This document shows, piece by piece, positions 2,109-16,160 of a stretch of 64,000 nucleotides of DNA. This stretch comes from Escherichia phage fEgEco12. The stretch lies in sequence record PP777464.1; one strand, given 5' to 3'. Every line of letters begins with the position of its first letter. Positions within the stretch are counted from its first letter, which is position 1. The translations under genes and the position numbers were made by a program. The notes beneath the pieces are model-generated. The model worked only from the letters and a program-made list of their open reading frames with translations, did no database searches and was not told where the DNA came from.

Positions 2109-2122
2109 GTTTAATAAAGTAC

Positions 2123-2794: not shown

Positions 2795-2801
2795 AAAGTA
2801 C

Positions 2802-2829: not shown

Positions 2830-2875
2830 GTTTTACATCGAGAGCGGGAACTCTTCCCGCCTATAACCTGGAGTA

Positions 2876-3112
2876 ATGAAAATGACTAATATGTATATGA
2901 CTGAAGTTAAAACCGTAAAAGATACTACCACGAATAAAACTACTTACTTACAGCGGATCTGTGGTGTATGGCAACGTATCAGCAAATCAAAGTACTTTAA
3001 ATTAACATCATATGCAAACCGTTCGGATTCATTCAGTACTGAAATAAAAGGTAATAAAGTACACCAATACGGCACTTATTATTATTATAGCCTGGACGCG
3101 ATTGCAGTATAA
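2876..3112 (+). CDS. hypothetical early protein
   Basis: ORF track; start 2876 or 2882, the latter better spaced from GGAG. Confidence 0.6.
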   Translation: MKMTNMYMTEVKTVKDTTTNKTTYLQRICGVWQRISKSKYFKLTSYANRSDSFSTEIKGNKVHQYGTYYYYSLDAIAV

Positions 3113-3142
3113 GCAGTTTACAAATCTTTACAATTGCCGGTA

Positions 3143-3171
3143 TTGACTTATTTTGTCAGTACTGGCATAAT
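3143..3171 (+). promoter_or_regulatory. sigma70-like promoter with no ORF downstream
   Basis: TTGACT, 17 nt, CATAAT; followed by conserved box TAGCCCATAGGGTGCGGGAGTGTATC. Confidence 0.45.
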
Positions 3172-3361
3172 GTATTCATTGGCAGATAAGCCGTAGCCCA
3201 TAGGGTGCGGGAGTGTATCTATAGAAAAAGTAGTTTATTACAGTTACAATTGTGCACCCGGTGGGTTAGCTGTTGTCATGGGGTATATTATGCCAGTACT
3301 TGATAATGCTGTCAATACTTTTTTTTACTATTCAGTACTGAAAACTATTTTTAAAAAGTAC

Positions 3362-3389
3362 TTGCAAACTATGTTTAAAGGCGTATAAT
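3362..3389 (+). promoter_or_regulatory. Consensus early promoter driving a non-coding element
   Basis: TTGCAA, 16 nt, TATAAT; no ORF before the next promoter at 3480. Confidence 0.55.
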
Positions 3390-3396
3390 GTTTTAC

Positions 3397-3478
3397 ATCA
3401 GGACGGGGAACGAAATAAGTAACTTCCCGTTAAGTAGCCCAGGAGTAAGGCACACGAAAAACTCCCCTGATAAAATAG
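3397..3478 (+). ncRNA. Candidate small RNA (about 80 nt)
   Basis: Promoter-driven, no start codon, predicted stem-loops; near-identical copy at 13650-13728, variant at 5947-6040. Confidence 0.35.
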
Positions 3479-3479
3479 T

Positions 3480-3507
3480 TTGACAAATGTTTTTAAAAGC
3501 GTATAAT
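3480..3507 (+). promoter_or_regulatory. sigma70-like promoter
   Basis: TTGACA, 16 nt, TATAAT upstream of 3540 gene. Confidence 0.6.
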
Positions 3508-3539
3508 ACTTACATCAACTACTGAATGAGGGTTACAAA

Positions 3540-4151
3540 ATGAAAACTATCACTACTACTACTTTCGTTATGGATTTTTCTGAATTGAACGCAGAACAAA
3601 AAACGTCAGCTATCGAACTGGTTCGGGAACGTGAAAAAAACTCAAACGACAATTATTTTTCTGAAAGTGAAATTGAATACTATAAAGAAACAGTACTACC
3701 GGAATATGGCATTAATGACGCTGAAATACAATTCAGTGGCTTTTGGTCCCAGGGTGACGGTGCATCAATCAGTACTGACCACGTTGACGCAGTGAAGTTT
3801 TTACGCAAGGTAAGAGCATTAACTAAGTATCGCTCAATCCGTCACTTGCTGAATGAAGATGATTTGGCGATGAGTGTAAAGCGTTCGCACTCCCACTACT
3901 CGCATGAGAATACTGTAAGCGGGTACATTGAATCGGCTTACACTGATTTAACCGCAAAACAAGAAACGTTAGTTAATGAGCTTGAGGAACTACTCACTGA
4001 AACTATTCGTGAATTATCCCGCAAGTTGTACCGTGATTTAGAGAATGCATATGAGGATCAATTCACTACTGAAAACATTACGGCACTGATTGAGGGTAAC
4101 GAGTATCAATTCAATGTTATTGATGGCGTAGTGGAATCAATCGAATATTAA
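3540..4151 (+). CDS. hypothetical early protein (203 aa)
   Basis: ORF track; promoter and RBS GAGGG; acidic protein, no family recognised. Confidence 0.7.
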   Translation: MKTITTTTFVMDFSELNAEQKTSAIELVREREKNSNDNYFSESEIEYYKETVLPEYGINDAEIQFSGFWSQGDGASISTDHVDAVKFLRKVRALTKYRSIRHLLNEDDLAMSVKRSHSHYSHENTVSGYIESAYTDLTAKQETLVNELEELLTETIRELSRKLYRDLENAYEDQFTTENITALIEGNEYQFNVIDGVVESIEY

Positions 4152-4163
4152 TTTAAAAAGTAC

Positions 4164-4191
4164 TTGCAAACTAAGTTTAAAAGCGTATAAT
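4164..4191 (+). promoter_or_regulatory. sigma70-like early promoter
   Basis: TTGCAA, 16 nt, TATAAT, then AGCGGGAATAGTTCCCGCT hairpin. Confidence 0.6.
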
Positions 4192-4243
4192 ACTTTATAT
4201 CGAGAGCGGGAATAGTTCCCGCTACTAATGAGGAATACTACAA

Positions 4244-4408
4244 ATGAATACTTTTACCTTCGCTCAATTGAACGCCCTGGATGTATTGTCTGATGCTTTG
4301 CGGGATGCAACTGAAAGCGGTTTATTTGACAATGTTGACATTCACCCTGATGTAATTAATAATTTTTGTGATGCTATCGCAGAAGTACTGGAAGATCTAA
4401 AAAAATAA
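4244..4408 (+). CDS. small hypothetical protein (54 aa)
   Basis: Below ORF-track cutoff; promoter, hairpin, RBS GAGGAA; open frame to TAA. Confidence 0.55.
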   Translation: MNTFTFAQLNALDVLSDALRDATESGLFDNVDIHPDVINNFCDAIAEVLEDLKK

Positions 4409-4496
4409 TAGAAAGTACTTGCAATTAGTTTTCAGTACTGTATAATGGTTTACATCAAAGGGAGAAATGGTTCTCCCTGGTAATGAGGAAAATACA

Positions 4497-4718
4497 ATGG
4501 CTAATATCACTACTCTTTCCCAACTGGAAGCACTGGTTAAATCTATGCGGGAACATGCTGACAAAATCGGCGTACAAGATCCAGCCGTTTGCTTCTGCGA
4601 CGAATTGAATGATGATACCCTGGTAATAGCAGAAGTCCAGGACGTTTCTAACTATTCCTCGCGTTACACTGGCGGCGTAGCAAATAAAGGTGACTTCTGT
4701 TTATACCTTACAAAATAA
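4497..4718 (+). CDS. hypothetical early protein (73 aa)
   Basis: ATG after hairpin GGGAGAA..TTCTCCC and RBS GAGGAAAA. Confidence 0.65.
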   Translation: MANITTLSQLEALVKSMREHADKIGVQDPAVCFCDELNDDTLVIAEVQDVSNYSSRYTGGVANKGDFCLYLTK

Positions 4719-4723
4719 CAACG

Positions 4724-4753
4724 CGGGGAGATAATAACTCCCCGTTACTTTTT
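4724..4753 (+). terminator. Rho-independent terminator
   Basis: CGGGGAG-ataataa-CTCCCCG then T-run. Confidence 0.6.
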
Positions 4754-4962
4754 CAGTACTGAATCATTTAATAGACGGATCTCGGCACCCGGTGGGTTAG
4801 TGACAGTTTCGTCTTGATGTAATAATTATGCCAGTACTGGATGCACTTGTCAACAACTATTTTTTCAAATACTTTTTATTAAAATACTTGCAATTAGTTT
4901 TTAAACGCGTATAATGTTTTGCATAGGGGGAGCGGTTCCCCTGGTAACTAAGGAATAAGAAA

Positions 4963-5199
4963 ATGCTTGAACAAATCAAATCAACGTCTGCGAATGTAAC
5001 GGGAACGGTAGTACACTTTACTAGTGATGAATCGCGGGGTGTACCCTATTGTGCTGTACATGTAAACACTGAGGGTAACTACTGGTTTACGGTTTACGGA
5101 TCATATTCATTTGGACGGCCTGGGCATCAAAAAATTCTGGATAAAGTACAACCAACGGGTAAAAATATCACGGCTGAAATGTTTTATAAAAAATCATAA
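4963..5199 (+). CDS. hypothetical early protein (78 aa)
   Basis: ORF track; promoter, hairpin GGGGGAGCGGTTCCCC, RBS AAGGAA. Confidence 0.65.
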   Translation: MLEQIKSTSANVTGTVVHFTSDESRGVPYCAVHVNTEGNYWFTVYGSYSFGRPGHQKILDKVQPTGKNITAEMFYKKS

Positions 5200-5283
5200 A
5201 GTACTTGATAATAGTTTTTAGTACTGTATAATATTTTACATCGCAAGGGGGAGCGGTTCCCCCTGGTAACTAAGGATAATCAA

Positions 5284-5583
5284 ATGAAAATTGCAATCAT
5301 CGCCCTGGCTTTATCTGTTTCCTCTTTCGCTGTTAATGCGTCATTAGATGTAAGTAGTGAAAAATTCATTCAGTGCACTGTTGCAATGACCGATGAAAGA
5401 ACTGGCGAGATTGTATTAAAGGATTTAGAGATCCAGCCGGAAGCATTTAAAAACGGCCCGTTCCATGAAGAAGACGAAAACGGTAGCACAACAATTTATT
5501 ATGATGCCAGTACTAAACGCGGTTCGGTCACTGTTATGGATACCGAGAAAGTAACTCATACCGGCGTTATTAATTGCCGTTGA
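5284..5583 (+). CDS. putative exported small protein
   Basis: N-terminal signal-peptide-like MKIAIIALALSVSSFAVNA; promoter and hairpin upstream. Confidence 0.6.
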   Translation: MKIAIIALALSVSSFAVNASLDVSSEKFIQCTVAMTDERTGEIVLKDLEIQPEAFKNGPFHEEDENGSTTIYYDASTKRGSVTVMDTEKVTHTGVINCR

Positions 5584-5604
5584 TAGATACTACGGGGTAA
5601 CATC

Positions 5605-5835
5605 ATGACTAAGCGAATTGTTTTACTTAACGAAAGCAGTACTACACAACTACTTAACGCCGTGCATTATGATATTGAAACGAGCGTTAATCTTATCAGT
5701 ACTGTAGTTCTGTTGGACACTGGAAAGGTAGCCAATGATAAAGCGATTGCAGGTATACTAACGGATCTTGTGCCTGGTAGCAGTGCACCAATAACGTTAA
5801 ATGGTAAAGTGTTTAATATTTTACTCACTGATTAA
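5605..5835 (+). CDS. hypothetical protein (76 aa)
   Basis: ORF track; RBS GGGG 7 nt upstream; terminator follows. Confidence 0.6.
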   Translation: MTKRIVLLNESSTTQLLNAVHYDIETSVNLISTVVLLDTGKVANDKAIAGILTDLVPGSSAPITLNGKVFNILLTD

Positions 5836-5841
5836 GTACAT

Positions 5842-5870
5842 AGCCCACCTGGTGGGCTTTTTTGTTTTTG
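5842..5870 (+). terminator. Rho-independent terminator
   Basis: AGCCCACC/GGTGGGCT hairpin then TTTTTTGTTTTT. Confidence 0.65.
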
Positions 5871-5917
5871 TAGTATCGTAGTACTGAGATACTTTGAAAA
5901 TAGTTTTAAAAAAGTAG

Positions 5918-5945
5918 TTGACATTACCACAGAAAAGCGTAGAAT
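5918..5945 (+). promoter_or_regulatory. sigma70-like promoter
   Basis: TTGACA, 16 nt, TAGAAT; long structured leader before 6069. Confidence 0.55.
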
Positions 5946-6068
5946 GTATTACATCAAGACGGGGAGCACTAAGTAGACCGCCAGTAAGTCGAACGAAAAA
6001 CTGGACACGTCGAGAAAACTTTGATACACTAATAAACGTAAACTAAACTTTAATTGAGGATTTATAAA

Positions 6069-6551
6069 ATGGCTAATGTAAAATCATTCATCAAAGCACT
6101 GGTAGCAAATGAAACTAACGTCGCGGCTGAGATCCTGGCTGAACTGGATAACGATACCATGAAAGCGGTACGCAATAATTTTAACATCGCGTACAGTACT
6201 GCGAAAGAACTACAAGCAAATAAAGCGGCAGAAATTGAAGCGGCAAAGGCGGCCCGTGAAGCAGAACTACAAGCAACAATCGAAAGTATTCAGGCGGCAG
6301 TAGTTGGATTGGATCTGGAAGTAGTTACAGAGATGGCACAAAAAGCCCTGGCGGTTAAGTATGGGGAAGACAAGCCAGAAGTAAAAGCCAAAAAATGGAT
6401 TCAGGAACGCGTAGCGGTAGTACTGGACAACGGGGAAGAATATCTGATTCCGGTGCGTGGTAACTGTATTGCGGTAGTACTGGACGCGATTAACTCCAGT
6501 GGTATGACTCGCGAGGAATGGATCGAAGCTCATCGCAAAGTTGAAGCATAA
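6069..6551 (+). CDS. hypothetical protein, Ala/Lys/Glu-rich (160 aa)
   Basis: ATG 8 nt after GAGGA; track start is an upstream TTG. Confidence 0.65.
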   Translation: MANVKSFIKALVANETNVAAEILAELDNDTMKAVRNNFNIAYSTAKELQANKAAEIEAAKAAREAELQATIESIQAAVVGLDLEVVTEMAQKALAVKYGEDKPEVKAKKWIQERVAVVLDNGEEYLIPVRGNCIAVVLDAINSSGMTREEWIEAHRKVEA

Positions 6552-6572
6552 CAATTAAAGTACTGAATCACT

Positions 6573-6600
6573 AGCCCACCTTAAACAGTGGGCTTTTTTG
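6573..6600 (+). terminator. Rho-independent terminator
   Basis: AGCCCAC..GTGGGCT hairpin then TTTTTT. Confidence 0.65.
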
Positions 6601-6826
6601 TGTCTATAGTATTCCAGGCCACCAGCACCGCCTAGAAACGATTCTAACGCATTAAACTGATTATCTGATGCATCGCCCTAGCTGGTGGCGTTAAGGTCGT
6701 TAGAATGCGATTGAGAGCGTTTAAAGTATTTTGCAAAAAGTAATAAAAAGTACTTGCACGATTAAGAGATTAGCGTATAATTAATTACATCAAGGCGAGA
6801 CACCTTAACTAACTGAGGATATAAAG

Positions 6827-6979
6827 ATGAATACTTATGAACTGGATTGTTTTACTTTACAAGTAATGTCAGTATGCAGTAAGAAAGATTGGTCATCAAA
6901 GGAATTTAAAGCAGTTATCGCGTGTGCAAAACACGGCAAGACTATCAATGAAACGGCATCAATCATTGATAAACTTTAA
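6827..6979 (+). CDS. small hypothetical protein (50 aa), paralog of 10703-10846
   Basis: Below track cutoff; promoter upstream; shared C-terminal pattern with 10703 gene. Confidence 0.5.
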   Translation: MNTYELDCFTLQVMSVCSKKDWSSKEFKAVIACAKHGKTINETASIIDKL

Positions 6980-6987
6980 AAAATAGT

Positions 6988-7016
6988 TTGACAATAGTTT
7001 TAAGTACTGGCATAAT
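6988..7016 (+). promoter_or_regulatory. sigma70-like promoter
   Basis: TTGACA, 17 nt, CATAAT. Confidence 0.6.
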
Positions 7017-7049
7017 ACATACATCAACTACTGAATAGGAATTAAAAAA

Positions 7050-7277
7050 ATGGCTATTATCATTACTCGCGTATCTGGTACTACTGGCAACGAACAAGTA
7101 GTTGCAGTCATTACCAACAAGGAAGGTGCGGAATTGCAAAATGCAATGAATACCTGGGCCGTTAATGAGTTCGGTCAGTGGGCAAGTGTAGCATACATTG
7201 AAACCTATCAAGTGCCGTCGATTAGTTTAACTGATTTGGGCGTTGAGCGTATCCTTTGCCTGGATGAATTAAATTAA
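7050..7277 (+). CDS. hypothetical early protein (75 aa)
   Basis: ORF track; promoter, RBS AGGAA. Confidence 0.65.
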   Translation: MAIIITRVSGTTGNEQVVAVITNKEGAELQNAMNTWAVNEFGQWASVAYIETYQVPSISLTDLGVERILCLDELN

Positions 7278-7362
7278 AAAAGTACTTGCAAAGTAAATCG
7301 AATAAAGTATAATACATTACATCAAGGGGAGAAATGATTCTCCCCACTACAAGGAAACTAAT

Positions 7363-7506
7363 ATGAAAACTTGTCAATGTGGTCAGAAATCTATTACGGG
7401 TTTAAAGCGGGGCGTTGCTCTTTGCCAGTACCATTATAATTTACAAGTATGGGGTAAAGAATGGGCCGACCAGGTGGAAGCAGCAAAGAAAGCAAAAAGT
7501 AAGTAA
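7363..7506 (+). CDS. small Cys-rich hypothetical protein (47 aa)
   Basis: Below track cutoff; promoter, GGGGAGAAATGATTCTCCCC hairpin, RBS AAGGAA; CxC...CxxH. Confidence 0.55.
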   Translation: MKTCQCGQKSITGLKRGVALCQYHYNLQVWGKEWADQVEAAKKAKSK

Positions 7507-7525
7507 AAATATTATCACAGTACTA

Positions 7526-7554
7526 TTGACATAGTTTGATAGTACTGGCATAAT
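7526..7554 (+). promoter_or_regulatory. sigma70-like promoter, second subtype
   Basis: TATTGACATAGTTTGATAGTACTGGCATAAT; same box upstream of 10433, 10703 and 18946 genes. Confidence 0.6.
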
Positions 7555-7595
7555 AGATTTTATCAAGACAACATATTAATTTAAGGAATACAAAA

Positions 7596-7919
7596 ATGGC
7601 TAAAACTATCATTAACACCGTTTCCCTGGCTGCAATCCGTGCAATCAATGTTGACGGTAAACGTTGGACTGATTCATATGGCAATACTTATCATTCTTGT
7701 CATGTAAGCGTCGAACTGGATAACGGTTTGAATGATCTGGCGGTTGAATCATTTACTTATGGCTATGAAGATGCATATCAACAAACGGCGTTAGATCTAT
7801 TAAAGGAATCAGTAGACGGGCTTAATACTGATGAAACCTCCCTTACTCGTTTGTGCAATGATCTTAATATCCCGTTGCATTGTACTGTACAGAATGTTAA
7901 ACGCAAAAAAGATCTTTAA
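7596..7919 (+). CDS. hypothetical protein, paralog of 14427-14750
   Basis: Shared RWTDSYGNTYHSC and FTYGY blocks and C-terminal VKRKKD. Confidence 0.7.
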   Translation: MAKTIINTVSLAAIRAINVDGKRWTDSYGNTYHSCHVSVELDNGLNDLAVESFTYGYEDAYQQTALDLLKESVDGLNTDETSLTRLCNDLNIPLHCTVQNVKRKKDL

Positions 7920-7999
7920 TTAGCTTTACTTTATGCAGATACTTTGATATAGTGTCTGCATAGGGGAAAGAAATTAAATTAACTTAAGAGGAACGTATA

Positions 8000-8269
8000 A
8001 TGAAAAATATCAGTACTTTAATCGACGCAGGTACACATGTTCGGCGGTCTATGGTTGCAACCAGTACTACAAAACAAGTAGCGAGCGGTTATCTTGTATT
8101 TGTGCACGATGGTAAACTACTGGAACGTTCAATCAATTTTGATGTTAAAAACAATTGCCGTTTTATTATCTTTAAGCGTGAGCAATATAAAATTGATTTA
8201 CCAGCAAAGCCCATTAGTGGGGCGTACAACGTGCAATCATTGTTTGAACGTCAACCATACACCTATTAA
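8000..8269 (+). CDS. hypothetical protein (89 aa)
   Basis: ORF track; RBS AAGAGGAA. Confidence 0.6.
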   Translation: MKNISTLIDAGTHVRRSMVATSTTKQVASGYLVFVHDGKLLERSINFDVKNNCRFIIFKREQYKIDLPAKPISGAYNVQSLFERQPYTY

Positions 8270-8320
8270 TCAAAACATCGTTAGCGGTCGATTCAGGCCG
8301 CTTATATTGGGGATTATACC

Positions 8321-8593
8321 ATGAACGTTAATCAAGTACTGAATGAAGTTGAAAGCATCATTAAACCAATGAAACGCATTGATGCTATGTTAACACCGGA
8401 AGAATGCCGCCTATATGAGCGTTATAGCGTCGAACAAGTCCAGGCGATGGCTATGGCTACCCCAGCCGTTAAACCGCCTGAGAATGCGTTACAGGACGTT
8501 ACAGGGGATTATATCATTAATCCAGTACTAGGGAAGATGGCTGCAATCACCGAAGATCAACAAGACTACTTAAGCCAGTACTTAAAAGGTTAA
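8321..8593 (+). CDS. hypothetical protein (90 aa)
   Basis: ORF track; RBS GGGGA. Confidence 0.6.
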   Translation: MNVNQVLNEVESIIKPMKRIDAMLTPEECRLYERYSVEQVQAMAMATPAVKPPENALQDVTGDYIINPVLGKMAAITEDQQDYLSQYLKG

Positions 8594-8598
8594 TTAAT

Positions 8599-8808
8599 AT
8601 GCTTACTGTACAGGATAAGATCGACATCTTAAAGGTTAATATGTATGTGATTGATGCAGTACCTGGTAAAGTATTTGCATACGATGACACCACTGTAAGC
8701 GATTTCTACTATAGCCAGGACGTGGGGGATCTTTCTGTACAGTCGGTTATTGAAAACGTAGTTAATGTAGCGTATGAGCATTTACTTTCAAATAGTACTT
8801 GCAATTAG
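8599..8808 (+). CDS. hypothetical protein (69 aa)
   Basis: ORF track; 3-prime end overlaps next promoter. Confidence 0.55.
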   Translation: MLTVQDKIDILKVNMYVIDAVPGKVFAYDDTTVSDFYYSQDVGDLSVQSVIENVVNVAYEHLLSNSTCN

Positions 8809-8877
8809 TTTTTAAACGCGTATAATGTTTTACATGAAGGGGAGAAATGATTCTCCCCACTAATTAAGGAATATGAA

Positions 8878-9024
8878 ATGAAAGCATCAAAAAAGAGTAA
8901 TACTAAGAAAGCACGTTCACCTTTCGCTGGGGTATTCCCTTTACGTTTCGTTGATGAAGTAGTTTCCTACCCGCCGGGCCTTACTCCTGAGATGGTAGAA
9001 AGTTTGCGTAAATCTAAAAAATAG
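8878..9024 (+). CDS. small basic hypothetical protein (48 aa)
   Basis: Below track cutoff; promoter, GGGGAGAAATGATTCTCCCC hairpin, RBS AAGGAA. Confidence 0.55.
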   Translation: MKASKKSNTKKARSPFAGVFPLRFVDEVVSYPPGLTPEMVESLRKSKK

Positions 9025-9105
9025 TACTTGCAATTAGTTTTTAGTACTGTATAATGTTTTACATGAAGGGGAGAAATGATTCTCCCCAATAACAGGAGAA
9101 TCAAA

Positions 9106-9258
9106 ATGAAACAATACAACGCTCGGTTTGATGTTACTATCGGTAACGGCAAAGGTCAATTCTCTTTCAGTACTCGCAAAAGTTATACAGAAAACTTCCT
9201 GCGTAATTGTGCACTGACCGCCGCACAAATTAAACATTACTTTCAGGCTAAAAAATGA
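9106..9258 (+). CDS. hypothetical protein (50 aa)
   Basis: ATG after RBS CAGGAG; track start lies in UTR hairpin. Confidence 0.6.
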   Translation: MKQYNARFDVTIGNGKGQFSFSTRKSYTENFLRNCALTAAQIKHYFQAKK

Positions 9259-9344
9259 AATCATTAGCTTATTACAGTTCGGCCCTGGTCGGTGCATTGA
9301 TCGCGGCGTTGTTAGTAACCTATCTATTCTTTATGGTGATTTAA
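9255..9344 (+). CDS. candidate hydrophobic micropeptide (29 aa)
   Basis: ATGA overlap with upstream stop; single predicted TM helix; speculative. Confidence 0.3.
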   Translation: MKSLAYYSSALVGALIAALLVTYLFFMVI

Positions 9345-9488
9345 ATGAATCCAACAGGTTTAAACTATAAAAGTTGTTCGGCGTTTACGAAAGCAAATAA
9401 AGCGAATGCACGTAAAGCGAAAGTACAGGAATACATCAAGCAAGGCATGACGCGAAAGGCGGCGATTCTAAAAGCTAAAAATAAATGA
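9345..9488 (+). CDS. small basic hypothetical protein (47 aa)
   Basis: TAAATG junction with upstream peptide; Lys/Ala-rich. Confidence 0.45.
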   Translation: MNPTGLNYKSCSAFTKANKANARKAKVQEYIKQGMTRKAAILKAKNK

Positions 9489-9605
9489 AAAAAGTGGTTG
9501 ACTCCGGTCAGCCATTTTGCTATTATATATTCATTGAGAGATAGCTCACTAGCCCACAGGGTGCATAAGTGTATCTATTATATAAGTATTGAGTACTGAA
9601 AACTA
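9489..9605 (+). repeat. Conserved intergenic module, copy 1 of 4
   Basis: TTGACTCCGGTCAG..TATTAT promoter inside near-palindrome, then box TAGCCCACAGGGTGCATAAGTGTATC; copies near 13487, 16755, 19507. Confidence 0.6.
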
Positions 9606-9698
9606 TTTTTAAAAAGTACTTGCAAACTATCTCAATAAGCGTATAATGTTTTACATCGAAAGGGGAAACGGTTTCCCCTGGTAATAAGGAAACAAATC

Positions 9699-10040
9699 AT
9701 GACTATCTCAATTGCTCAATCTAACTTTGAAAATGAAATCATCGCCCAGGCACTGCGTTTAAATGATGGTCGGGCCGAAATTAATTACGGTTTCAATTCA
9801 GGCGGTTGTGAAAAATATCAGTACTTTGTAACGGCTGATGGCGGTGTCCTGGGTATCAATACAGTTATTGTAAACATACAGAAAATTAATTTCAATGATC
9901 CAGACGATAGCCAGTTTTACATCACTGGCGTAGACGTGAACTATGAGGATGACTCACTAACTGATGATCACACTGGCGAGCGGTTAGAAAGTGCATACGG
10001 TGAAGATGATTATCAGTCCGGTCCAGAAGATTTCGAATAA
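9699..10040 (+). CDS. hypothetical protein, acidic C-terminus (113 aa)
   Basis: ORF track; promoter, hairpin GGGGAAACGGTTTCCCC, RBS AAGGAA. Confidence 0.65.
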   Translation: MTISIAQSNFENEIIAQALRLNDGRAEINYGFNSGGCEKYQYFVTADGGVLGINTVIVNIQKINFNDPDDSQFYITGVDVNYEDDSLTDDHTGERLESAYGEDDYQSGPEDFE

Positions 10041-10136
10041 TATAAAAAAATAGTTTGACAATAGATTATAGTACTGTATAATAGTTTACATCAAGGGGAG
10101 AAAAACTTCTCCCCACTAACAGAGAGAAAAAACAAA

Positions 10137-10349
10137 ATGGCTAATATCTGCACTGTACTGAAAAATGCAAAACAAGTTTTATTTTCTGATCACGATCATT
10201 TAAACAAGGATATTACTGGCGTTCGGAATATCAAAGATGTAAAAAGTGTTATGGGTATCTATTGCAATATGAAACGTGTTGGAACGTTCGGCGACAAAGT
10301 ACTATACCAGGCAGGGGATTACAATTTTACACTGACTATCATTAACTAA
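10137..10349 (+). CDS. hypothetical protein (70 aa)
   Basis: ORF track; promoter TTGACA..TATAAT, hairpin, RBS. Confidence 0.65.
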   Translation: MANICTVLKNAKQVLFSDHDHLNKDITGVRNIKDVKSVMGIYCNMKRVGTFGDKVLYQAGDYNFTLTIIN

Positions 10350-10432
10350 AAATATTATCACAGTACTATTGACATAGTTTGATAGTACTGACATAATAAC
10401 TTTTATCAACTACACTACTAAGGAATTAAAAA

Positions 10433-10612
10433 ATGGCTATCATCGCAAAAACTGAAATCGTTGGTCTGGATTCTATCATCATGACGTTTGAAGATCAAAA
10501 AGGTATGTATGTAGTTTCATATGGTGATTATGTTCGGGAGTATGAAACGGTAGACGAAGCCTTTGAAAGTTATATTCGCCAGGTGAATAAAGCATACGAC
10601 GACTACCGCTAA
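10433..10612 (+). CDS. small hypothetical protein (59 aa)
   Basis: Below track cutoff; subtype-2 promoter, RBS AAGGAA. Confidence 0.55.
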   Translation: MAIIAKTEIVGLDSIIMTFEDQKGMYVVSYGDYVREYETVDEAFESYIRQVNKAYDDYR

Positions 10613-10702
10613 AATATATTACCAGTACTATTGACATAGATTGATAGTACTGTATAATAAGTTTTATAAACAGTAGTTAACTTAACCTAAGAGAGAAATA
10701 AA

Positions 10703-10846
10703 ATGATCGCACTGGATTCATTCATCGACGCAGTACTGGCAAAAACTGGCGAGGATCTGACCGCAGAACAATACGCGATGATCGAGCAATGTCAGCAAAA
10801 CGGTAAATCGGTGAAAGATACTGTTAAGATTATCCGCAAGATGTAA
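10703..10846 (+). CDS. small hypothetical protein (47 aa), paralog of 6827-6979
   Basis: Below track cutoff; promoter, RBS GAGAGAAA. Confidence 0.5.
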   Translation: MIALDSFIDAVLAKTGEDLTAEQYAMIEQCQQNGKSVKDTVKIIRKM

Positions 10847-10951
10847 TATTATAGCCCACTGGTTAACGCTGGTGGGCTTTAATCATTTACCCTATACAAT
10901 GCCAGTACTAAACCGTTTATCTCGTTAGAATGCGTTACAGGACGTTTGACA

Positions 10952-11149
10952 ATGATTAGCATGAAATCAGTACAAAAACAAATAGAAACATTATCAAAAA
11001 TTAAACGTAAACAGTACTCGTTAGAATATACAATCAATGGTAACTATCATCTAATGAAAGAGAATAATTTCATTGTCATTGATGAATCATTGCAAGTTAT
11101 TAGTATAGTACTGAAAGCATTAATCAATGACAGAAAAAAATTAAAATAA
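10952..11149 (+). CDS. hypothetical protein
   Basis: ORF track (TTG at 10946); weak RBS; start uncertain. Confidence 0.4.
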   Translation: MISMKSVQKQIETLSKIKRKQYSLEYTINGNYHLMKENNFIVIDESLQVISIVLKALINDRKKLK

Positions 11150-11244
11150 TCTATTGACAATATCCTCCAGTACTGGCATAATACTTACATCAAGACGAGA
11201 ACGTCACTAACCCATAGGGTGCACAAATGTAACTATATAATATC

Positions 11245-11315
11245 GATCAATAAATGATCAAAAAAGTACTGGATCAATTTAGCATAAGGCGTATAATTCT
11301 GATCAATTCTTGATC
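11245..11315. promoter_or_regulatory. Cluster of five GATC sites in (T)GATCAA context around a promoter
   Basis: GATC at 11245, 11256, 11272, 11301, 11312 within 71 bp. Confidence 0.6.
11270..11297 (+). promoter_or_regulatory. Promoter with GATC-containing degenerate -35
   Basis: Consensus -35 replaced by TGGATC; -10 TATAAT; two GATC just downstream. Confidence 0.5.
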
Positions 11316-11478
11316 AAAGGCAATATACGCAGTTGAATTTATATAGACAGTACAAAGGCGTTACTATTCGTGGTAATGCTGGTGGATATGTAGTATCATA
11401 TGGTTTGAATAAGATAAACACTAGTAGTATTATTGTAGCATTACAGTACTATAGTATTTTTATAATGAGGTTAAAATA

Positions 11479-11736
11479 ATGGCAGTAGGATACGCGAAAG
11501 ACGGGGCCGAACAAGACGAGATTCATGCAGTGATTCAGGCCGCCGTTAACCACGCTAGAAAGCAAATTAACGCACAAAGAGAATCACTTGTACATTGCCT
11601 CGACTGCGGCGATAAAATCCCTGAGAATCGACGCCAGGCCGTTATAGGGTGCATGTATTGTATTACTTGCCAGGAGGATCATGATAGTACTTTTAAAAGA
11701 GATCCGCGTAATTGTTGGCATAGATCTATGAGATAA
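11479..11736 (+). CDS. TraR/DksA-family C4 zinc-finger protein
   Basis: CLDCGDKIPENRRQAVIGCMYCITCQ = C-x2-C-x17-C-x2-C spacing typical of TraR/DksA. Confidence 0.7.
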   Translation: MAVGYAKDGAEQDEIHAVIQAAVNHARKQINAQRESLVHCLDCGDKIPENRRQAVIGCMYCITCQEDHDSTFKRDPRNCWHRSMR

Positions 11737-11799
11737 AAAGTATTGACAGTACTGAAAGATAGTGTATAATGTTTTATATCTTAACTGAGGATAGTAATC

Positions 11800-12156
11800 A
11801 TGGGAATACAACATATCACGCGTACTACTGACAATGGCGAGATCACTGGCTATCAAGTACAGGGCAAAGTAGCACAATTGCAGTACTGGTTTGTTAAACG
11901 TGGAATCATTGCACCGGATCTTGATTATGACCGTGTAGCGTTTATTGATTCTCTTTATGTTGATCCTGATAGTCGGGGCAATGGTGAAGGTAACGAATTA
12001 ATGAATGCCTTTATTGATGCCGCCGATGATTCAGATTGTATCATCTTAGAATGCGATACGGGAGAAGATAACGCCTTTAATCTTAAAGAATGGTACGAAG
12101 GTTTCGGATTCGAGGTATTGATAGATAGTGAATATCCTATCATGATTTTATCATAG
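11800..12156 (+). CDS. minimal GNAT-like N-acetyltransferase (putative)
   Basis: Motif-A-like SRGNGEGNELMNAF and C-terminal NAFNLKEWYEGFGFE. Confidence 0.5.
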   Translation: MGIQHITRTTDNGEITGYQVQGKVAQLQYWFVKRGIIAPDLDYDRVAFIDSLYVDPDSRGNGEGNELMNAFIDAADDSDCIILECDTGEDNAFNLKEWYEGFGFEVLIDSEYPIMILS

Positions 12157-12234
12157 TACTTGCATTTAGTTTTCAGTACTGTTATAGTACTTGCATCAAG
12201 GGGAAACATCTTCCCCTACTAAGAGGAAATAAAA

Positions 12235-12423
12235 ATGGAAAACTTATCAAGTATTTTAGTACAAGATGATTTCGGTAATCCTGGAAGTGCTATCATTGTT
12301 CGGGGCAATAAAGCAACGTTTGTTATTGCTGGTGGACCCGTACAGCGTAGCATTAAAAATAATGCTGTTACCATTAATAATGTACGCTATCGCTTAGATA
12401 AAGAATTAATTCATAAACTGTAA
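12235..12423 (+). CDS. hypothetical protein (62 aa)
   Basis: ORF track; promoter, hairpin GGGGAAACATCTTCCCC, RBS; internal Chi. Confidence 0.6.
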   Translation: MENLSSILVQDDFGNPGSAIIVRGNKATFVIAGGPVQRSIKNNAVTINNVRYRLDKELIHKL

Positions 12424-12450
12424 TATTAATTTAATAGAGGATAACAATAA

Positions 12451-12774
12451 ATGTACATTCATACTACTGTCACAAAGGAAGTCCGTTGCCAGTTCGAAAG
12501 TATTCCGGGCGTATGTTTCATCACTGGTACGTTTTCCCCTGGTGATCGTGATAATCCAGTACTGTTACAGTTACGCCATCCATTATGGGATAAAGCATTT
12601 GATCTGCCGTTGAATGAATTCGCAACCACTGCTGATAAGTACATTAAAAATATTCGCGAGAATGATTGCCTATTCATTAATGCTTTTAGTGATGCCGCGT
12701 TAAGTGAGATCCATGCTGTATTGGTTGCAATCATGGAATCAATGGAGAAAACTATATTCAAACAAGGTGAATAA
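12451..12774 (+). CDS. hypothetical protein (107 aa)
   Basis: ORF track; RBS AGAGGA. Confidence 0.6.
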   Translation: MYIHTTVTKEVRCQFESIPGVCFITGTFSPGDRDNPVLLQLRHPLWDKAFDLPLNEFATTADKYIKNIRENDCLFINAFSDAALSEIHAVLVAIMESMEKTIFKQGE

Positions 12775-12857
12775 AAACTATTGACAATGCAATCCAGTAC
12801 TGTATAATAGTTTACATGAAGGGGAGAAATGATTCTCCCCACTAAGAGGAAAGAAAA

Positions 12858-13070
12858 ATGCAAGGTCAACTAATCGTTCGTAAATGGTCTGATACTAACG
12901 AAAAACCGTGGGATGTACAATACATCGCCCCAAATGGTGAATCCAGATATCAACCAGGTGTAACGCATAGTACTGAGCAATTCGCCGCCGCTCATCGCGA
13001 ACGTCTGTTACAATCAATGCAGCAAGGTTCCGGTGAAAAATTCATTCAGGATCATTGGCTGAAAGATTAA
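12858..13070 (+). CDS. hypothetical protein (70 aa)
   Basis: ORF track; promoter TTGACA..TATAAT, hairpin, RBS AGAGGAAA. Confidence 0.65.
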   Translation: MQGQLIVRKWSDTNEKPWDVQYIAPNGESRYQPGVTHSTEQFAAAHRERLLQSMQQGSGEKFIQDHWLKD

Positions 13071-13157
13071 AAAAGTACTTGCACAGTACTGAATAAAGTG
13101 TATAATGTTTTATATCGGAAGGGGAATAGTTCCCCTCCTAACAAAGAGGAAAGTATA

Positions 13158-13331
13158 ATGGTCCAGGTAGAATTAACAGTACTGAAAGATCTGTTTTATC
13201 GGATTGGTACTACTGGCGAATATCCGAAGGGTGATAATGCAAAACTTTACGTATCACTCGACTTATGGCAACGCGAACAATTAGCAACGGCCTGGCGTAA
13301 AGGCAAAGCAGATCGAGAGGTGAAAGCATGA
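13158..13331 (+). CDS. hypothetical protein (57 aa)
   Basis: ATG after hairpin and RBS AGAGGAAAG; track start in -10 box. Confidence 0.6.
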   Translation: MVQVELTVLKDLFYRIGTTGEYPKGDNAKLYVSLDLWQREQLATAWRKGKADREVKA

Positions 13332-13477
13332 AAGAATTCTTATTTGAAGTAGTGTTTCAAGGTGTCGGTAATAACCAACTGATTCGATCAAGTGGTTATA
13401 ATGTTAACCAGGCATGGAATAACATTAAACAAATGTACCCGAACGCTATCACATATCGCAACCCGAAAGAAGTTTAA
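13328..13477 (+). CDS. small hypothetical protein (49 aa)
   Basis: Below track cutoff; ATGA overlap with upstream stop. Confidence 0.45.
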   Translation: MKEFLFEVVFQGVGNNQLIRSSGYNVNQAWNNIKQMYPNAITYRNPKEV

Positions 13478-13486
13478 AAATATTTG

Positions 13487-13600
13487 AAAAAGGGATTGAC
13501 TCCGGTCAGTCCCTTTGCTATTATATACGCATAGAAACAAATTAGCCCACAGGGTGCATAAATGTATCTATTGTTTGCTGGTGGCTAGTACTGAAAACTA
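13487..13600 (+). repeat. Conserved intergenic module, copy 2
   Basis: Same TTGACTCCGGTCAG promoter and TAGCCCACAGGGTGCATAAATGTATC box; includes Chi at 13577. Confidence 0.6.
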
Positions 13601-13615
13601 TTTTTAAAAAAGTAC

Positions 13616-13643
13616 TTGCATTGTACTTAGAATCAAGTATAAT
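13616..13643 (+). promoter_or_regulatory. Promoter driving second candidate sRNA
   Basis: TTGCAT, 16 nt, TATAAT. Confidence 0.5.
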
Positions 13644-13649
13644 GTTTTA

Positions 13650-13728
13650 CATCAGGACGGGGAACGAAATAAGTAACCCCGTTAAGTAGTCCAGGAGTAA
13701 GACATACGAAAAACTCCCCTGATAAAAT
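13650..13728 (+). ncRNA. Candidate small RNA, copy 2
   Basis: Near-identical to 3397-3478; compensatory change in first stem (ACGGGG/CCCCGT). Confidence 0.35.
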
Positions 13729-13731
13729 AGT

Positions 13732-13759
13732 TTGACAATAGAAAGTAAACGAGTATAAT
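13732..13759 (+). promoter_or_regulatory. sigma70-like promoter
   Basis: TTGACA, 16 nt, TATAAT upstream of 13793. Confidence 0.6.
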
Positions 13760-13792
13760 ACTTACATCAACCACTGATAAGGAAACATTAAA

Positions 13793-14068
13793 ATGCGGAC
13801 TTTACTTACAGCTAACGAAATCGAGCAAGTACTGACTACTAATCTGGAACAATGGAAACGTGAAGCAGATATCCAGGCGGTTCAATGCCTTAACGATAAG
13901 TTAACGCCAGATGACTTAAGCACGATTGTTGATCCACAATTTTATGAAGATATTCACGACACGTCTTTAAGCGTCGAGGATGTACTTGATAAGCACTACA
14001 TTGATACTGATTTACATGTTTACGGTCGTAAAAACTTTATCACTATTCACGACATTTACAATACTTAA
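13793..14068 (+). CDS. hypothetical protein (91 aa)
   Basis: ORF track; promoter and RBS AAGGAAA. Confidence 0.65.
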   Translation: MRTLLTANEIEQVLTTNLEQWKREADIQAVQCLNDKLTPDDLSTIVDPQFYEDIHDTSLSVEDVLDKHYIDTDLHVYGRKNFITIHDIYNT

Positions 14069-14156
14069 GTATTGACAAAGTATCTTAGTACTGTATAATA
14101 GTTTACATCAAGTGAGGGGAAACGGTTCCCCTCCTAACAAAGAGAGAGAAATAAAA

Positions 14157-14339
14157 ATGGCTAAGTGCACTATCTGTAATAAAGAAATAGTATTAGTTCC
14201 AAGTGCCCGTGAACGTGCCGCTCGGTTCGGTGGCAAAGCGTCAGACTATACAAAAATGTTTACTGCCCATACAGCTTGCCAGGTAGCAAAACGTTCACAA
14301 GAAAGCGTAGAATTAATGCGTAAACTTTCCAAAAAATAA
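14157..14339 (+). CDS. small Cys-containing hypothetical protein (60 aa)
   Basis: ATG after hairpin and RBS; CTIC...C pattern. Confidence 0.6.
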   Translation: MAKCTICNKEIVLVPSARERAARFGGKASDYTKMFTAHTACQVAKRSQESVELMRKLSKK

Positions 14340-14426
14340 GTATTGACAAAGTATCTTAGTACTGTATAATAGTTTACATCAAGCGAGGGGAATAGTTCCC
14401 CTCCTAACAAAGAGAGAGAAATAAAA

Positions 14427-14750
14427 ATGGCTATGATCCTTGCCCAGAAAGTAGAATTGAAAATTGTAACCTCCTTTGACATTAACGTTAATCGGTGGAC
14501 TGATTCACACGGCAATACTTACCACTCTTGCTACGTGTCTGCGTTAATTGGCGACCGCTGGGAAGACCTGGGACACGAAACCTTTACATACGGTTACGGT
14601 ACACAAGGCGAATACACGGGCTTGGAGATCATTAAAGAAACCGTTATAGGTTTCAACCCGAAAGAAAAAGTTATTCATCGCATCGAGGAAGAGATCAACA
14701 AAGAAATAACAGTTCGCTACCACGATGTAAAACGTAAGAAAGACATGTAA
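14427..14750 (+). CDS. hypothetical protein, paralog of 7596-7919
   Basis: Promoter/UTR cassette 14339-14426 nearly identical to 14069-14156. Confidence 0.7.
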   Translation: MAMILAQKVELKIVTSFDINVNRWTDSHGNTYHSCYVSALIGDRWEDLGHETFTYGYGTQGEYTGLEIIKETVIGFNPKEKVIHRIEEEINKEITVRYHDVKRKKDM

Positions 14751-14772
14751 TAGAATCCATTTAAAGTACTAT

Positions 14773-14801
14773 TTGACATTGCCCAGATAGTACTTTATAA
14801 T
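14773..14801 (+). promoter_or_regulatory. sigma70-like promoter
   Basis: TTGACA, 17 nt, TATAAT. Confidence 0.6.
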
Positions 14802-14845
14802 AGACTCTAACTTGTAGTACTAACTCAACTAATAGGATGTATACC

Positions 14846-15241
14846 ATGATTACTAAATTCTACGCTACCCGTGAAGCTGCCCGTATTGTTGCACGCGAGG
14901 AAGGAGCAGCATTTAAAGACATGGGCAAAGATGCAACGAAAGGACAACGCTGGGCCGTACAGTTCAAAGAAATCTCTGATATTGTGAATTCACCTGAGCC
15001 AGTACTGACAGCAGCAGAACTAAAACGAGCGGATATGCTGGCGGCAATACTTGACGCACAAGATGAGTTTATCGCTGATTCTGATATCAAAGTACAGGTA
15101 AACCACACCGCATGGACTCACGCGGATCACCTGGCAAACCTTAAGCGTCCAAGTGAACTGATTCGCAACCAGAAAGAGATCCGACATGATCGTAAGGGTA
15201 ATCGTGTAACAGTATACAGTAAACGCCGCCAGGTTATCTAA
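14846..15241 (+). CDS. hypothetical protein, paralog of 2528-2794
   Basis: Shared N- and C-terminal blocks; RBS AGGA. Confidence 0.65.
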   Translation: MITKFYATREAARIVAREEGAAFKDMGKDATKGQRWAVQFKEISDIVNSPEPVLTAAELKRADMLAAILDAQDEFIADSDIKVQVNHTAWTHADHLANLKRPSELIRNQKEIRHDRKGNRVTVYSKRRQVI

Positions 15242-15263
15242 TAACTTGCAGTACTAACAACAC

Positions 15264-15288
15264 GGCGGGATCAGTTCCCGCCTTTTTT
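15264..15288 (+). terminator. Rho-independent terminator
   Basis: GGCGGGA-tcagt-TCCCGCC then TTTTTT. Confidence 0.7.
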
Positions 15289-15302
15289 ATAGGACAAACA
15301 AA

Positions 15303-15557
15303 ATGATTAAGGTTCAACTATATAAAGATAACATCTTACGGGTACACTATAAAGCACCTCAGAGAATCATCACAAAGGCCGTACAGCTTGCTAATGAGTT
15401 TATTAATGGTAACCTATTACCTAGGAAGTTAAGCAACGGGAAACTGCGTGTAATCGACGTGGACACTAACAACAGGATAGTAATCGAGAACACAGGAAAG
15501 ATAAACCTTTATGAGCATCAACAATACAATAAGAAAATAAAACTAATATCACGTTGA
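15303..15557 (+). CDS. hypothetical protein (84 aa)
   Basis: ORF track. Confidence 0.55.
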   Translation: MIKVQLYKDNILRVHYKAPQRIITKAVQLANEFINGNLLPRKLSNGKLRVIDVDTNNRIVIENTGKINLYEHQQYNKKIKLISR

Positions 15558-15610
15558 CAGTACTCAATTGTTTTAGTACTATGTACACATACCAACACGG
15601 GAGAAACAAA

Positions 15611-15829
15611 ATGAAATTATCTAAAATCGAAAAGAAAACTATTGATGAAGCAGTTAAGCACGGTTATACCTTTCGTAATGATTCACATTTTACCAATTTT
15701 CAACAAGGGTATCGTACTATTAAAAAACTAATTGACAAAGGTTTATTAGTTGAAGTCAATAACGGTAACGGTATCGAGTATCAACCAACACAGGACGCAT
15801 TTTATTTTAAGAAATATAATATTATCTAA
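15611..15829 (+). CDS. hypothetical protein (73 aa)
   Basis: Track start is the TTG of the -35 box; ATG after RBS GGGAG. Confidence 0.6.
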   Translation: MKLSKIEKKTIDEAVKHGYTFRNDSHFTNFQQGYRTIKKLIDKGLLVEVNNGNGIEYQPTQDAFYFKKYNII

Positions 15830-15886
15830 TTGACAGTACTCAAATGTTTTAGTACTATATGTACATACCAACACGGGGGAAACAAA

Positions 15887-16129
15887 ATGATTACTTTAGA
15901 AAAACGTATCAAAGAAACTACATCGCTGGTGGAACTGTTAACAGTACTCAAATGTAAAACAACACCATTCAGCACGCCGGACTTTATTAATATGGTTGAT
16001 GTTAATGGTCGCTATCGTATCACGGTCGAACAAGGAGCGGCGAAAGTATTCAGTACTAAAAACACGAAGGAAGTGATCCACGCCGTTAATGTTAAAAAAG
16101 TAGTTGCCATTGATAGTAAAGTACTGTAA
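15887..16129 (+). CDS. hypothetical protein (80 aa)
   Basis: Duplicated promoter as for 15611; ATG after RBS GGGGGA; internal Chi. Confidence 0.6.
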   Translation: MITLEKRIKETTSLVELLTVLKCKTTPFSTPDFINMVDVNGRYRITVEQGAAKVFSTKNTKEVIHAVNVKKVVAIDSKVL

Positions 16130-16160
16130 TATAGTTTCATTAACTCAAGGAGAACATGCA

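Follow-up and report, generated by a model that had tools for sequence, protein, structure and literature searches.

The window analysed here, 64,000 nucleotides of Escherichia phage fEgEco12 (PP777464.1), carries a gene for an 85-aa C4 zinc-finger protein (Table 1) which, judging from its sequence, is a member of the TraR/DksA superfamily with YbiI as its nearest subfamily and does not belong to the TraR family in the strict sense. The best-supported mechanism for this protein is that of a binder of the RNAP secondary channel which may reprogramme host transcription, a reading that our analysis leads us to hold with moderate confidence. The gene is already annotated in public records with essentially the same interpretation: it is labelled 'C-4 type zinc finger protein' in Ecwhy_1 (Ecwhy1_480), its homolog in 121Q is gp294, and the GenBank labels elsewhere read 'TraR/DksA C4-type zinc finger protein' or 'DksA-like zinc-finger protein'.

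The cysteine spacing C-x2-C-x17-C-x2-C and the size of 85 aa on which the initial annotation was built were found exactly as quoted, with the putative zinc ligands at C40-x2-C43-x17-C61-x2-C64. All four ligands are invariant among 47 homologs, and of the two cysteines beyond the motif C58 is not conserved and C79 is conserved within the phage clade. The profile search suggested there as a check, against the TraR/DksA C4 zinc-finger family, was positive, as Pfam PF01258 (zf-dskA_traR) matched residues 39-68 above its gathering score (36.9 bits against 24.9, E 3.7e-9), and PHROG 54, 'DksA-like zinc-finger protein', matched with an E value of 8e-19. The best NCBIfam model was the YbiI equivalog NF008243 (PRK11019), with a score of 78.6 bits against a cut-off of 96 and with residues 1-73 of the protein aligned to positions 1-72 of the 88 in the model. 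The cut-offs of the TraR models, TIGR02419 (49.1 against 59.7) and NF010268 (PRK13715; 31.6 against 108), and of the NCBIfam DksA_like model NF033459 (14.2 against 105) were not reached. Sequence search in the PDB gave E. coli YbiI (2KGO, full length) as the best match (E 2.4e-11, residues 1-69), followed by TraR (6N57 and 5W1S; E 5e-6, residues 18-68).

Structural modelling in AlphaFold2 with an alignment of the 47 homologs (mean pLDDT 71) predicted a helix at residues 6-28, a zinc-knuckle region, a short helix at residues 62-68 and a poorly defined tail. Foldseek search against the PDB returned YbiI (2KGO) as the best fold match and then RNAP-bound TraR (6N57/5W1S; TM ~0.5 on target), with weaker matches to Chlamydia Dks, DksA and DksA2 (DksA entries 7KHI, 5VSW and 1TJL). 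Comparison of the phage/YbiI alignment with the TraR clade in hhalign gave a probability of 99% (E 5.9e-18) for an ungapped alignment of residues 19-74 with TraR 16-71. The TraR alignment was built with a TraR sequence verified against 5W1S, and its profile is narrow, as the homolog search gave only close TraR relatives with identities of at least 66%. The hhalign match runs through residue 74, while the tail past residue 68 has pLDDT values of only 51-65 in the model.

In TraR, residues 2-27 form an N-terminal helix, residues 28-57 a globular zinc domain seated on the beta' rim helices and beta'Si3, and residues 58-73 a C-terminal helix seated on the beta-lobe/Si1 (PMC6970531). The TraR residues P45, E46, R48 and R49 mediate the binding to the rim helices and beta'Si3 (PMC9239242, PMC6970531), and TraR function needs the DxxDxA tip as well as R48 and R49 (PMC9239242). 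In the register of our alignment (offset 3), the RNAP-contact residues P45, E46, R48, R49 and G54 of TraR correspond to P48, E49, R51, R52 and G57 of the phage protein. Among the 47 homologs, P48, R51 and R52 never vary, E49 is kept in at least 90%, and G57 is invariant or nearly so. Two TraR residues are not kept in this register, P43 being replaced by K46 and K50 by Q53.

The DxxDxA motif is required for function and not for binding in both TraR and lambda Orf73, and the tip aspartates of DksA are likewise essential for function and dispensable for binding (PMC9239242). This tip was sought in the 85-aa protein and is absent, since TraR D3, D6 and A8 fall on A6, G9 and E11 at offset 3. With a slip of one residue D8-x-A10 pairs with TraR D6-x-A8, but the first Asp position is then occupied by an aromatic residue. 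Forcing DxxDxA onto the N-terminus was rejected and the motif was scored as missing, because the gaps introduced by MAFFT are arbitrary and the profile-profile alignment, which stops short of the first 18 residues, does not cover the tip. The N-terminus is about 4 residues longer than that of TraR, and the predicted C-terminal helix has about half the TraR length. The N-terminal sequence MAVGYAKDGAEQDEI fits the YbiI-type MAxG[FWY]AKDGA, followed by a helix of the same length, and the pattern MAxG[WF]AxDGA is common to the phage clade and the bacterial 88-aa proteins. The C-terminal tail of YbiI, ...YNRRGSKDSQLR, is not present in the phage clade, which has FKRxPRNCWHRSMR instead; the two tails can be aligned only as R-N-x-x-x-x-S-x-R, and P0200 has an intermediate form. 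Based on PF01258, PHROG 54, the hhalign match to the TraR clade at 99% probability and the top folds of YbiI, TraR and DksA, membership of the TraR/DksA superfamily is supported. The earlier assignment to this family is thus retained at that level, and the TraR-type part of it is not, with the scores below the TraR cut-offs and the DxxDxA tip absent.

A word-indexed search for homologs of the 85-aa protein returned 47 clusters in three groups, namely Asteriusvirus proteins (88-96% identity), full-length homologs from T4-like phages (62-72% identity), such as Citrobacter phage Moon, vB_EcoM_RZ and the Yersinia phages MHG19 and fHe-Yen9-01, and bacterial 88-aa YbiI-like proteins (42-51% identity in full-length alignment). 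Using tblastn, a full-length homolog was found in 532 of 50,697 phage records, mostly of large virulent myoviruses (T4-like and jumbo) infecting Klebsiella, Escherichia, Acinetobacter, Erwinia and Enterobacter. In JS98 the homolog lies in the mobD.3 region, and Mosigvirus phages have only a chimeric 54-aa remnant of the gene. An exhaustive profile search gave 2526 representative clusters at E <= 1e-3, in which the whole phage clade, with the N-terminal motif MAVG[FY]AKDGAEQ, forms one 50%-identity cluster, and the next matches are YbiI-like proteins with the consensus MAxGWAxDGAVQDQID...YNRRGSKDSQLR. In the literature searched, no experimental work was found on YbiI-type phage proteins and nothing specific on DksA-like proteins of virulent phages.

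The region from 10600 to 12200 of the window is 100% identical to Ecwhy_1 (MH791411.1, 354.5 kb, Asteriusvirus), with the + strand of the window corresponding to the minus strand of the record, and 92-99% identical to about 20 further 121Q/PBECO4-like jumbo coliphages. In vB_Ec-M-J the zinc-finger gene (12349-12606) lies within the annotated direct terminal repeat of 21,525 bp, and in phage records with resolved termini the region is present twice; the terminal repeats of relatives measure 20.7-21.0 kb (PMC11895373, PMC13070987). The first ~20 kb of the window hold dozens of small ORFs on the + strand, most of which are preceded by a stereotyped promoter cassette composed, in order, of an A-tract, AGTACTTGCA or TTGACA, a 16-nt spacer, TATAAT, GTTTTACATC, a GC-rich hairpin and a ribosome-binding site. 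Altogether, 39 near-consensus sigma-70 promoters are located on the + strand of the first 21 kb, and their discriminators are AT-rich (e.g. GTTTTAC and AGTTTAC). The promoter of the downstream acetyltransferase gene marks the end of the coding part of the zinc-finger transcription unit. The gene itself, its fold class and family, its conserved residues, this genomic setting and the promoter architecture are established by the analysis.

Table 1 Features of the zinc-finger locus and its upstream cassette in the window.
Feature	Position	Strand	Description	Basis
Indel cassette, 330 bp	11151-11480	.	Flanked by direct repeat TTAAAATAAT (11141-11150 and 11471-11480); absent in G17	
Promoter P1	11154-11182	+	TTGACA-17-CATAAT, TG extension, 11/12 against the sigma-70 consensus	Promoter scan
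Repeated element 3' of P1	11184-11233	+	Contains CCCATAGGGTGCACAAATGTA (11212-11231); invariant in relatives	
GATC cluster (GATCAA x5)	11245-11315	.	Surrounds degenerate promoter cassette P2 and hairpin	
P2, degenerate promoter cassette	11270-11275 and 11292-11297		TGGATC, 16-nt spacer, TATAAT	
Hairpin TGATCAA-TTC-TTGATCA	11300-11316		In GATC cluster	
48-aa ORF	11333-11479	+	TTG start (GTG in PBECO4); TAA stop overlaps zinc-finger ATG (TAATG)	
Chi octamer GCTGGTGG	11378-11385	+	Inside 48-aa ORF; position not conserved	
GAGG ribosome-binding site of zinc-finger gene	11467-11470	+	8 nt 5' of ATG	Read from sequence
Zinc-finger gene	11479-11736	+	ATG start, 85 aa; YbiI-like C4, TraR/DksA superfamily	ORF listing, Pfam, PHROG, PDB match
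Promoter of downstream acetyltransferase gene	11743-11770	+	TTGACA-16-TATAAT, 12/12	Promoter scan

The initial annotation had also placed the gene behind an unusually long leader with a GATC cluster and a Chi site. The gap between the end of the upstream annotated gene (11149) and the zinc-finger ATG is indeed 329 bp, but the notion of a leader had to be given up, as this stretch is an accessory cassette of 330 bp that brings a coding ORF and its own promoter(s). In G17, the zinc-finger gene is 92% identical and abuts the upstream gene, a homolog of 121Q gp292, with a TAATG overlap, and pairwise alignment with this phage shows a clean 330-column gap between the TTAAAATAAT repeats. We found the block in 26 records; G17, phAPEC6, Sharanji and ph0011 are among those that lack it. 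Because the cassette has duplicated the ...AGGTTAAAATAATG junction, the zinc-finger gene retains its ribosome-binding site and the overlap at its start codon, and the GAGG sequence is unchanged in five Asteriusvirus relatives. The zinc-finger homolog of the T4-like phage Moon is also translationally coupled to its upstream gene.

The 48-aa ORF inside the cassette is annotated as a CDS in JNE01, PBECO4, Turkey3 and 121Q (gp293). Its frame is open in two lineages despite differences at 39 of the 147 nt (11, 9 and 19 by codon position), and its product matches PHROG 38664 with an E value of 3.7e-31. Given this conservation and the PHROG match, the possibility of a chance ORF was rejected. A paralogous relationship with the 59-aa ORF at 10433, with 8 of 15 residues alike, was considered too weak to call.

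Promoter P1 of the cassette belongs to the promoter repeat families D6, D7, D11 and D12, and its hexamers are invariant in relatives. The CCCATAGGGTGCACAAATGTA unit that follows was found in 6 copies in the window by mismatch-tolerant search, against 0.00 expected by chance, and in 7 copies by motif-pattern search, all of them 22-29 nt past a promoter -10; similar sequence is located in the intergenic DNA of RaK2-like Klebsiella phages. The CCCAYAGGGTGC unit was also considered as a structured small RNA and rejected, given that RNAalifold analysis of 7 copies yielded a weak G-U-rich hairpin with no compensatory pairs. Single-sequence folds of this unit suggested an outer stem, the arm sequences of which differ between copies. 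A riboswitch, an attenuator or a known RNA in the leader was rejected on the basis of Rfam searches, which gave nothing at the gathering threshold for the whole window and nothing at E <= 1 for 11100-11520. Folding of the 292-nt leader is somewhat more stable than that of shuffled sequences (z = -3.3); the palindromic GATC repeats account for this, and it is no indication of function.

The GATC cluster was confirmed, as five GATC sites, all of them GATCAA, fall here and no other 100 bp of the window holds more than three. When 152 sites were placed uniformly in 64 kb, five fell within 72 bp in a fraction of 0.0045 of the simulation runs, and the fraction was 0.019 at the density of the first 20.6 kb. 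P2, which the cluster surrounds, is a decayed copy of the standard promoter cassette (repeat family D14), in which the -35 region and the 5' hairpin are made of GATCAA/TTGATC. In the PBECO4 lineage four upstream GATC sites are kept (TTGATCAA twice) and the hairpin is not. We rejected both a P1-pac-like packaging site and an essential regulatory site as roles for the GATC/TGATCA cluster, given that the block is missing in G17 and lies ~12 kb inside the terminal repeat. The cluster belongs to the optional cassette and not to the zinc-finger gene.

The Chi octamer is present as claimed, but it is not a feature of the zinc-finger gene, since its position is not conserved (position 11378 reads GCTGGGGA in 121Q and Turkey3 and is different in PBECO4) and it is one of 10 Chi sites on the same strand. 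All 10 lie within the first 20 kb of the window, with 3 more on the other strand, compared to an expectation of 0.15-0.5 from Markov models of order 1-4, and the equivalent region of 121Q contains 9. Chi enrichment is a property of the terminal-repeat region. This enrichment, the AGTACT-rich promoter cassettes and the repeated promoter-plus-motif units are region-wide and more unusual than the zinc-finger gene.

Combining the alignments, the model and the genomic setting, we speculate that host sigma-70-type promoters in the ~21-kb terminal repeat probably drive production of the zinc-finger protein early in infection. The N-terminal helix of the protein (about residues 6-28) would enter the secondary channel of the host RNAP, with the zinc-knuckle domain docking on the beta' rim helices via I47-P48-E49-x-R51-R52, and would alter the kinetics of initiation without binding DNA. 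Host promoters with short-lived open complexes, such as those of rRNA and ribosomal-protein genes, would be disfavoured, and the near-consensus phage promoters with AT-rich discriminators would be spared or favoured. Promoters inhibited by DksA/TraR have GC-rich discriminators and short-lived open complexes, whereas the discriminators of the phage promoters are AT-rich, so that the latter should be spared. Asteriusvirus and RaK2-like phages use the host RNAP together with phage sigma factors (PMC11895373, PMC5259590). In such phages, which have no RNAP of their own and combine the host core with phage sigma factors, the target enzyme is available throughout infection. The terminal-repeat setting and the sigma-70 promoters fit an early modulator of host RNAP; RNAP binding, the direction of the effect and the early timing are what we infer for this protein. 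Because it scores below the TraR, YbiI and DksA cut-offs and has no DxxDxA tip, reprogramming of RNAP is at most a reasonable reading.

The combination of a conserved binding surface (P48, E49, R51 and R52) with a DxxDxA tip that is not conserved may also be read in the opposite sense, namely that the protein occupies the DksA/TraR/Gre site and excludes DksA-ppGpp (and GreA/GreB) as an antagonist rather than a mimic, so that a stringent-type shutdown of the translation apparatus would be prevented during infection. The separation of function from binding at the DksA tip aspartates (PMC9239242) is in line with such a plug, and non-functional competitors for the channel, e.g. Rnk, are known. We nevertheless regard it as unlikely, considering that MAxG[FWY]AKDGA ranks with the most strongly conserved segments of the YbiI family as a whole, which points to an active rather than a decayed tip, and that YbiI reportedly complements a dksA mutant, which would require a positive, DksA-like function. 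The same long and invariant MAxG[FWY]AKDGA, together with the conserved basic tail, raises the idea that the YbiI-type clade of phages and bacteria acts on RNAP in a distinct mode, for which occlusion or re-coordination of the active centre and selectivity for the holoenzyme with a phage sigma factor are possible options. The tip of TraR lies 4.3 A from the catalytic Mg2+. A distinct mode of this kind appears improbable to us at present.

The conserved termini that YbiI has of its own and TraR lacks (MAxGWAxDGAVQDQID and YNRRGSKDSQLR), as well as the phage tail PRNCWHRSMR, could instead indicate that YbiI-type proteins, including the phage clade, work elsewhere than on RNAP and resemble TraR in fold only, for instance in a metal- or stress-linked role or on another nucleic-acid machine bound via the conserved basic C-terminal tail. 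There is precedent for such divergence in RSP0166 and SMc00049, C4 zinc-finger TraR/DksA homologs that do not act like DksA (PMC9239242). This reading, which we consider somewhat unlikely, is at variance with the conservation of the RNAP-contact residues in the globular domain, with the homology to TraR, ungapped over 56 residues, and with the fact that the sole functional hint for YbiI is a DksA-like activity. The neighbourhood of the gene, a mosaic of small accessory ORFs in which indels are frequent (the 330-bp cassette; an acetyltransferase gene present or absent), and the chimeric remnant in Mosigvirus phages could even suggest a dispensable passenger, derived from a host ybiI gene and without a role in infection. 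We hold this to be very improbable indeed, as full-length copies with invariant zinc ligands and the phage-specific tail are found, at 62-96% identity, throughout Asteriusvirus and in many T4-like genera, and both the translational coupling and the ribosome-binding site are kept even across the 330-bp indel.

With regard to its significance, the result confirms a routine annotation at the superfamily level and narrows it to the YbiI type rather than the TraR type. It is an ordinary find of modest practical value, given that the family is known to bind host RNAP and the gene had already been annotated. To our knowledge, experiments have so far been confined to TraR-length proteins of plasmids and temperate phages. 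The YbiI-type clade, present in 532 phage records, bears on how far the TraR paradigm reaches to lytic phages that use host RNAP throughout, and its phage members could also inform on the function of E. coli YbiI itself. If the distinct mode proved true, a host-takeover factor whose mechanism differs from that of TraR/Orf73 would be present in large virulent phages (T4-like and jumbo).

Among known systems, YbiI (2KGO) is collinear with the 85-aa protein from M1 to residue 69, with 43% identity over 68 aligned YbiI residues. The two share the MAxG[WFY]Ax(D)xA start, the helix length, the C4 spacing and the IPxxRR segment, and differ in one extra residue of the phage protein in the linker from helix to finger, in the tail (phage FKRxPRNCWHRSMR, YbiI GYNRRGSKDSQLR) and in the gene setting, a phage terminal repeat here and the chromosomal, Fur-linked fiu-ybiX-ybiI for YbiI. 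According to PMC2613031, which does not show the data, high expression of YbiI relieves a dksA mutant of its amino-acid auxotrophy. DksA has the same zinc-finger domain family and presumed RNAP binding site, but at 151 aa it is longer and comprises a two-helix coiled coil, residues that contact ppGpp and a C-terminal helix, unlike the 85-aa phage protein with its single N-terminal helix. The F-plasmid TraR (5W1S, 6N57) has the same three parts as the phage protein, an N-terminal helix, a C4 zinc-knuckle globular domain and a C-terminal segment, but the identity is only 26%, and the phage protein has a shorter C-terminal helix and an added basic tail.

Lambda Orf73, P2 Orf82, VP882 Orf61, VHML Orf8 and X. 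bovienii Gp34 are small phage proteins of the same superfamily (PMC9239242), and all five phage TraR homologs assayed bind RNAP and inhibit rrnB P1 (PMC9239242). Such homologs inhibit rRNA and ribosomal-protein promoters, and that of lambda raises the burst size (PMC9239242). X. bovienii Gp34, in which D3 of the tip is lacking, matches TraR in RNAP binding and has an IC50 of 415 nM for the inhibition of rrnB P1 (PMC9239242), so that an incomplete tip motif is compatible with activity. These five homologs are of TraR length and come from temperate phages, with their genes near lysis-lysogeny or replication genes, whereas the 85-aa protein is of the YbiI type and comes from a virulent jumbo phage and T4-like phages.

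All ten + strand Chi octamers (GCTGGTGG) of the window fall within its first 20 kb, which belong to the direct terminal repeat, against 0.15-0.5 expected under Markov models of order 1-4, and none was found on this strand in the remaining 44 kb; three octamers lie on the opposite strand. The equivalent 24 kb of the related jumbo coliphage 121Q carries nine. In the + strand orientation, the octamers would be read by RecBCD entering at the right-hand genome end, and they may therefore protect the genome end or promote recombination and circularisation of the linear genome. Close to the left end of the window, an inverted Chi pair at 578-597, CCACCAGC-ttgt-GCTGGTGG, gives a hairpin with a perfect 8-bp stem. 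Another hairpin, at 10855-10882, contains the Chi octamer at 10868 within its 3' arm; it is annotated as a terminator in phage G17 and was not called by a simple terminator scan.

A stereotyped promoter cassette is present in 17-19 copies across 1600-20150. It opens with an A-tract and continues with either AGTACTTGCA or TTGACA, separated by 16 nt from TATAAT; GTTTTACATC comes next, and then a GC hairpin (GGGGAGAA-N4-TTCTCCCC or variants) that would lie at the 5' terminus of the predicted transcript, ahead of a ribosome-binding site and small ORF. The motif AGTACT, often as CAGTACTG, occurs 256 times in the 64,000 nt, compared to about 21 expected from base composition, with the highest density in 1-20000, and is usually located immediately upstream of the -35 element of consensus promoters or between -35 and -10. 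Just past the terminal-repeat boundary, an array of paralogous coding repeats at 21200-23900 (repeat families D10, D17 and D18; motif ...GTNYQ...) suggests a tandemly duplicated small-gene family.

Short recurrent units were also identified, in which CCCAYAGGGTGCRNRARTGTAWC is placed 22-29 nt after a near-consensus promoter. Three of them share a hairpin embedding the -35 element (AAAGGGATTGACTCCGGTCAGTCCCTTT), and two copies, at 3198 (+) and 3264 (-), point towards each other. The units may act as a small RNA, as a 5' leader module or as a protein-binding site; no match was obtained in Rfam, no covariation was detected among the seven copies, and similar sequence is carried by RaK2-like Klebsiella phages.

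Coordinates of the features (window positions unless stated otherwise)
Feature	Position	Strand	Remark
Chi GCTGGTGG	590, 6681, 10868, 11378, 12328, 13577, 15925, 17823, 19402, 19625	+	within 1-20000
Chi, opposite strand	578, 6619, 60313	-	
Hairpin	10855-10882		AGCCCAC-N12-GTGGGCT, then TTT
Promoter cassettes	13587-13664, 10044-10137, 12770-12863		examples
Promoters with AGTACT	10631-10658, 11154-11182, 11743-11770		examples
CCCAYAGGGTGCRNRARTGTAWC units	3198 (+), 3264 (-), 9554, 11212, 13547, 16821, 19568		
CCCAYAGGGTGCRNRARTGTAWC unit	near 1258		degenerate copy
GNAT acetyltransferase gene	11800-12156		immediately downstream of the zinc-finger gene
Chimeric remnant, PHROG 25948	453-617 of L033		54 aa; vB_EcoM-RPN187 (Mosigvirus)

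The PHROG 25948 remnant of Escherichia phage vB_EcoM-RPN187 carries an unrelated N-terminus, onto which the second CxxC knuckle and a tail of the phage type (...VIYCVGCQSMHDEIFKREPRNCWHRSMR) are fused, and cannot form the four-cysteine zinc site. The 121Q and Ecwhy_1 lineages carry the GNAT acetyltransferase gene, whereas PBECO4, slurp01 and G17 lack it, a further indel in the same mosaic region as the zinc-finger gene.
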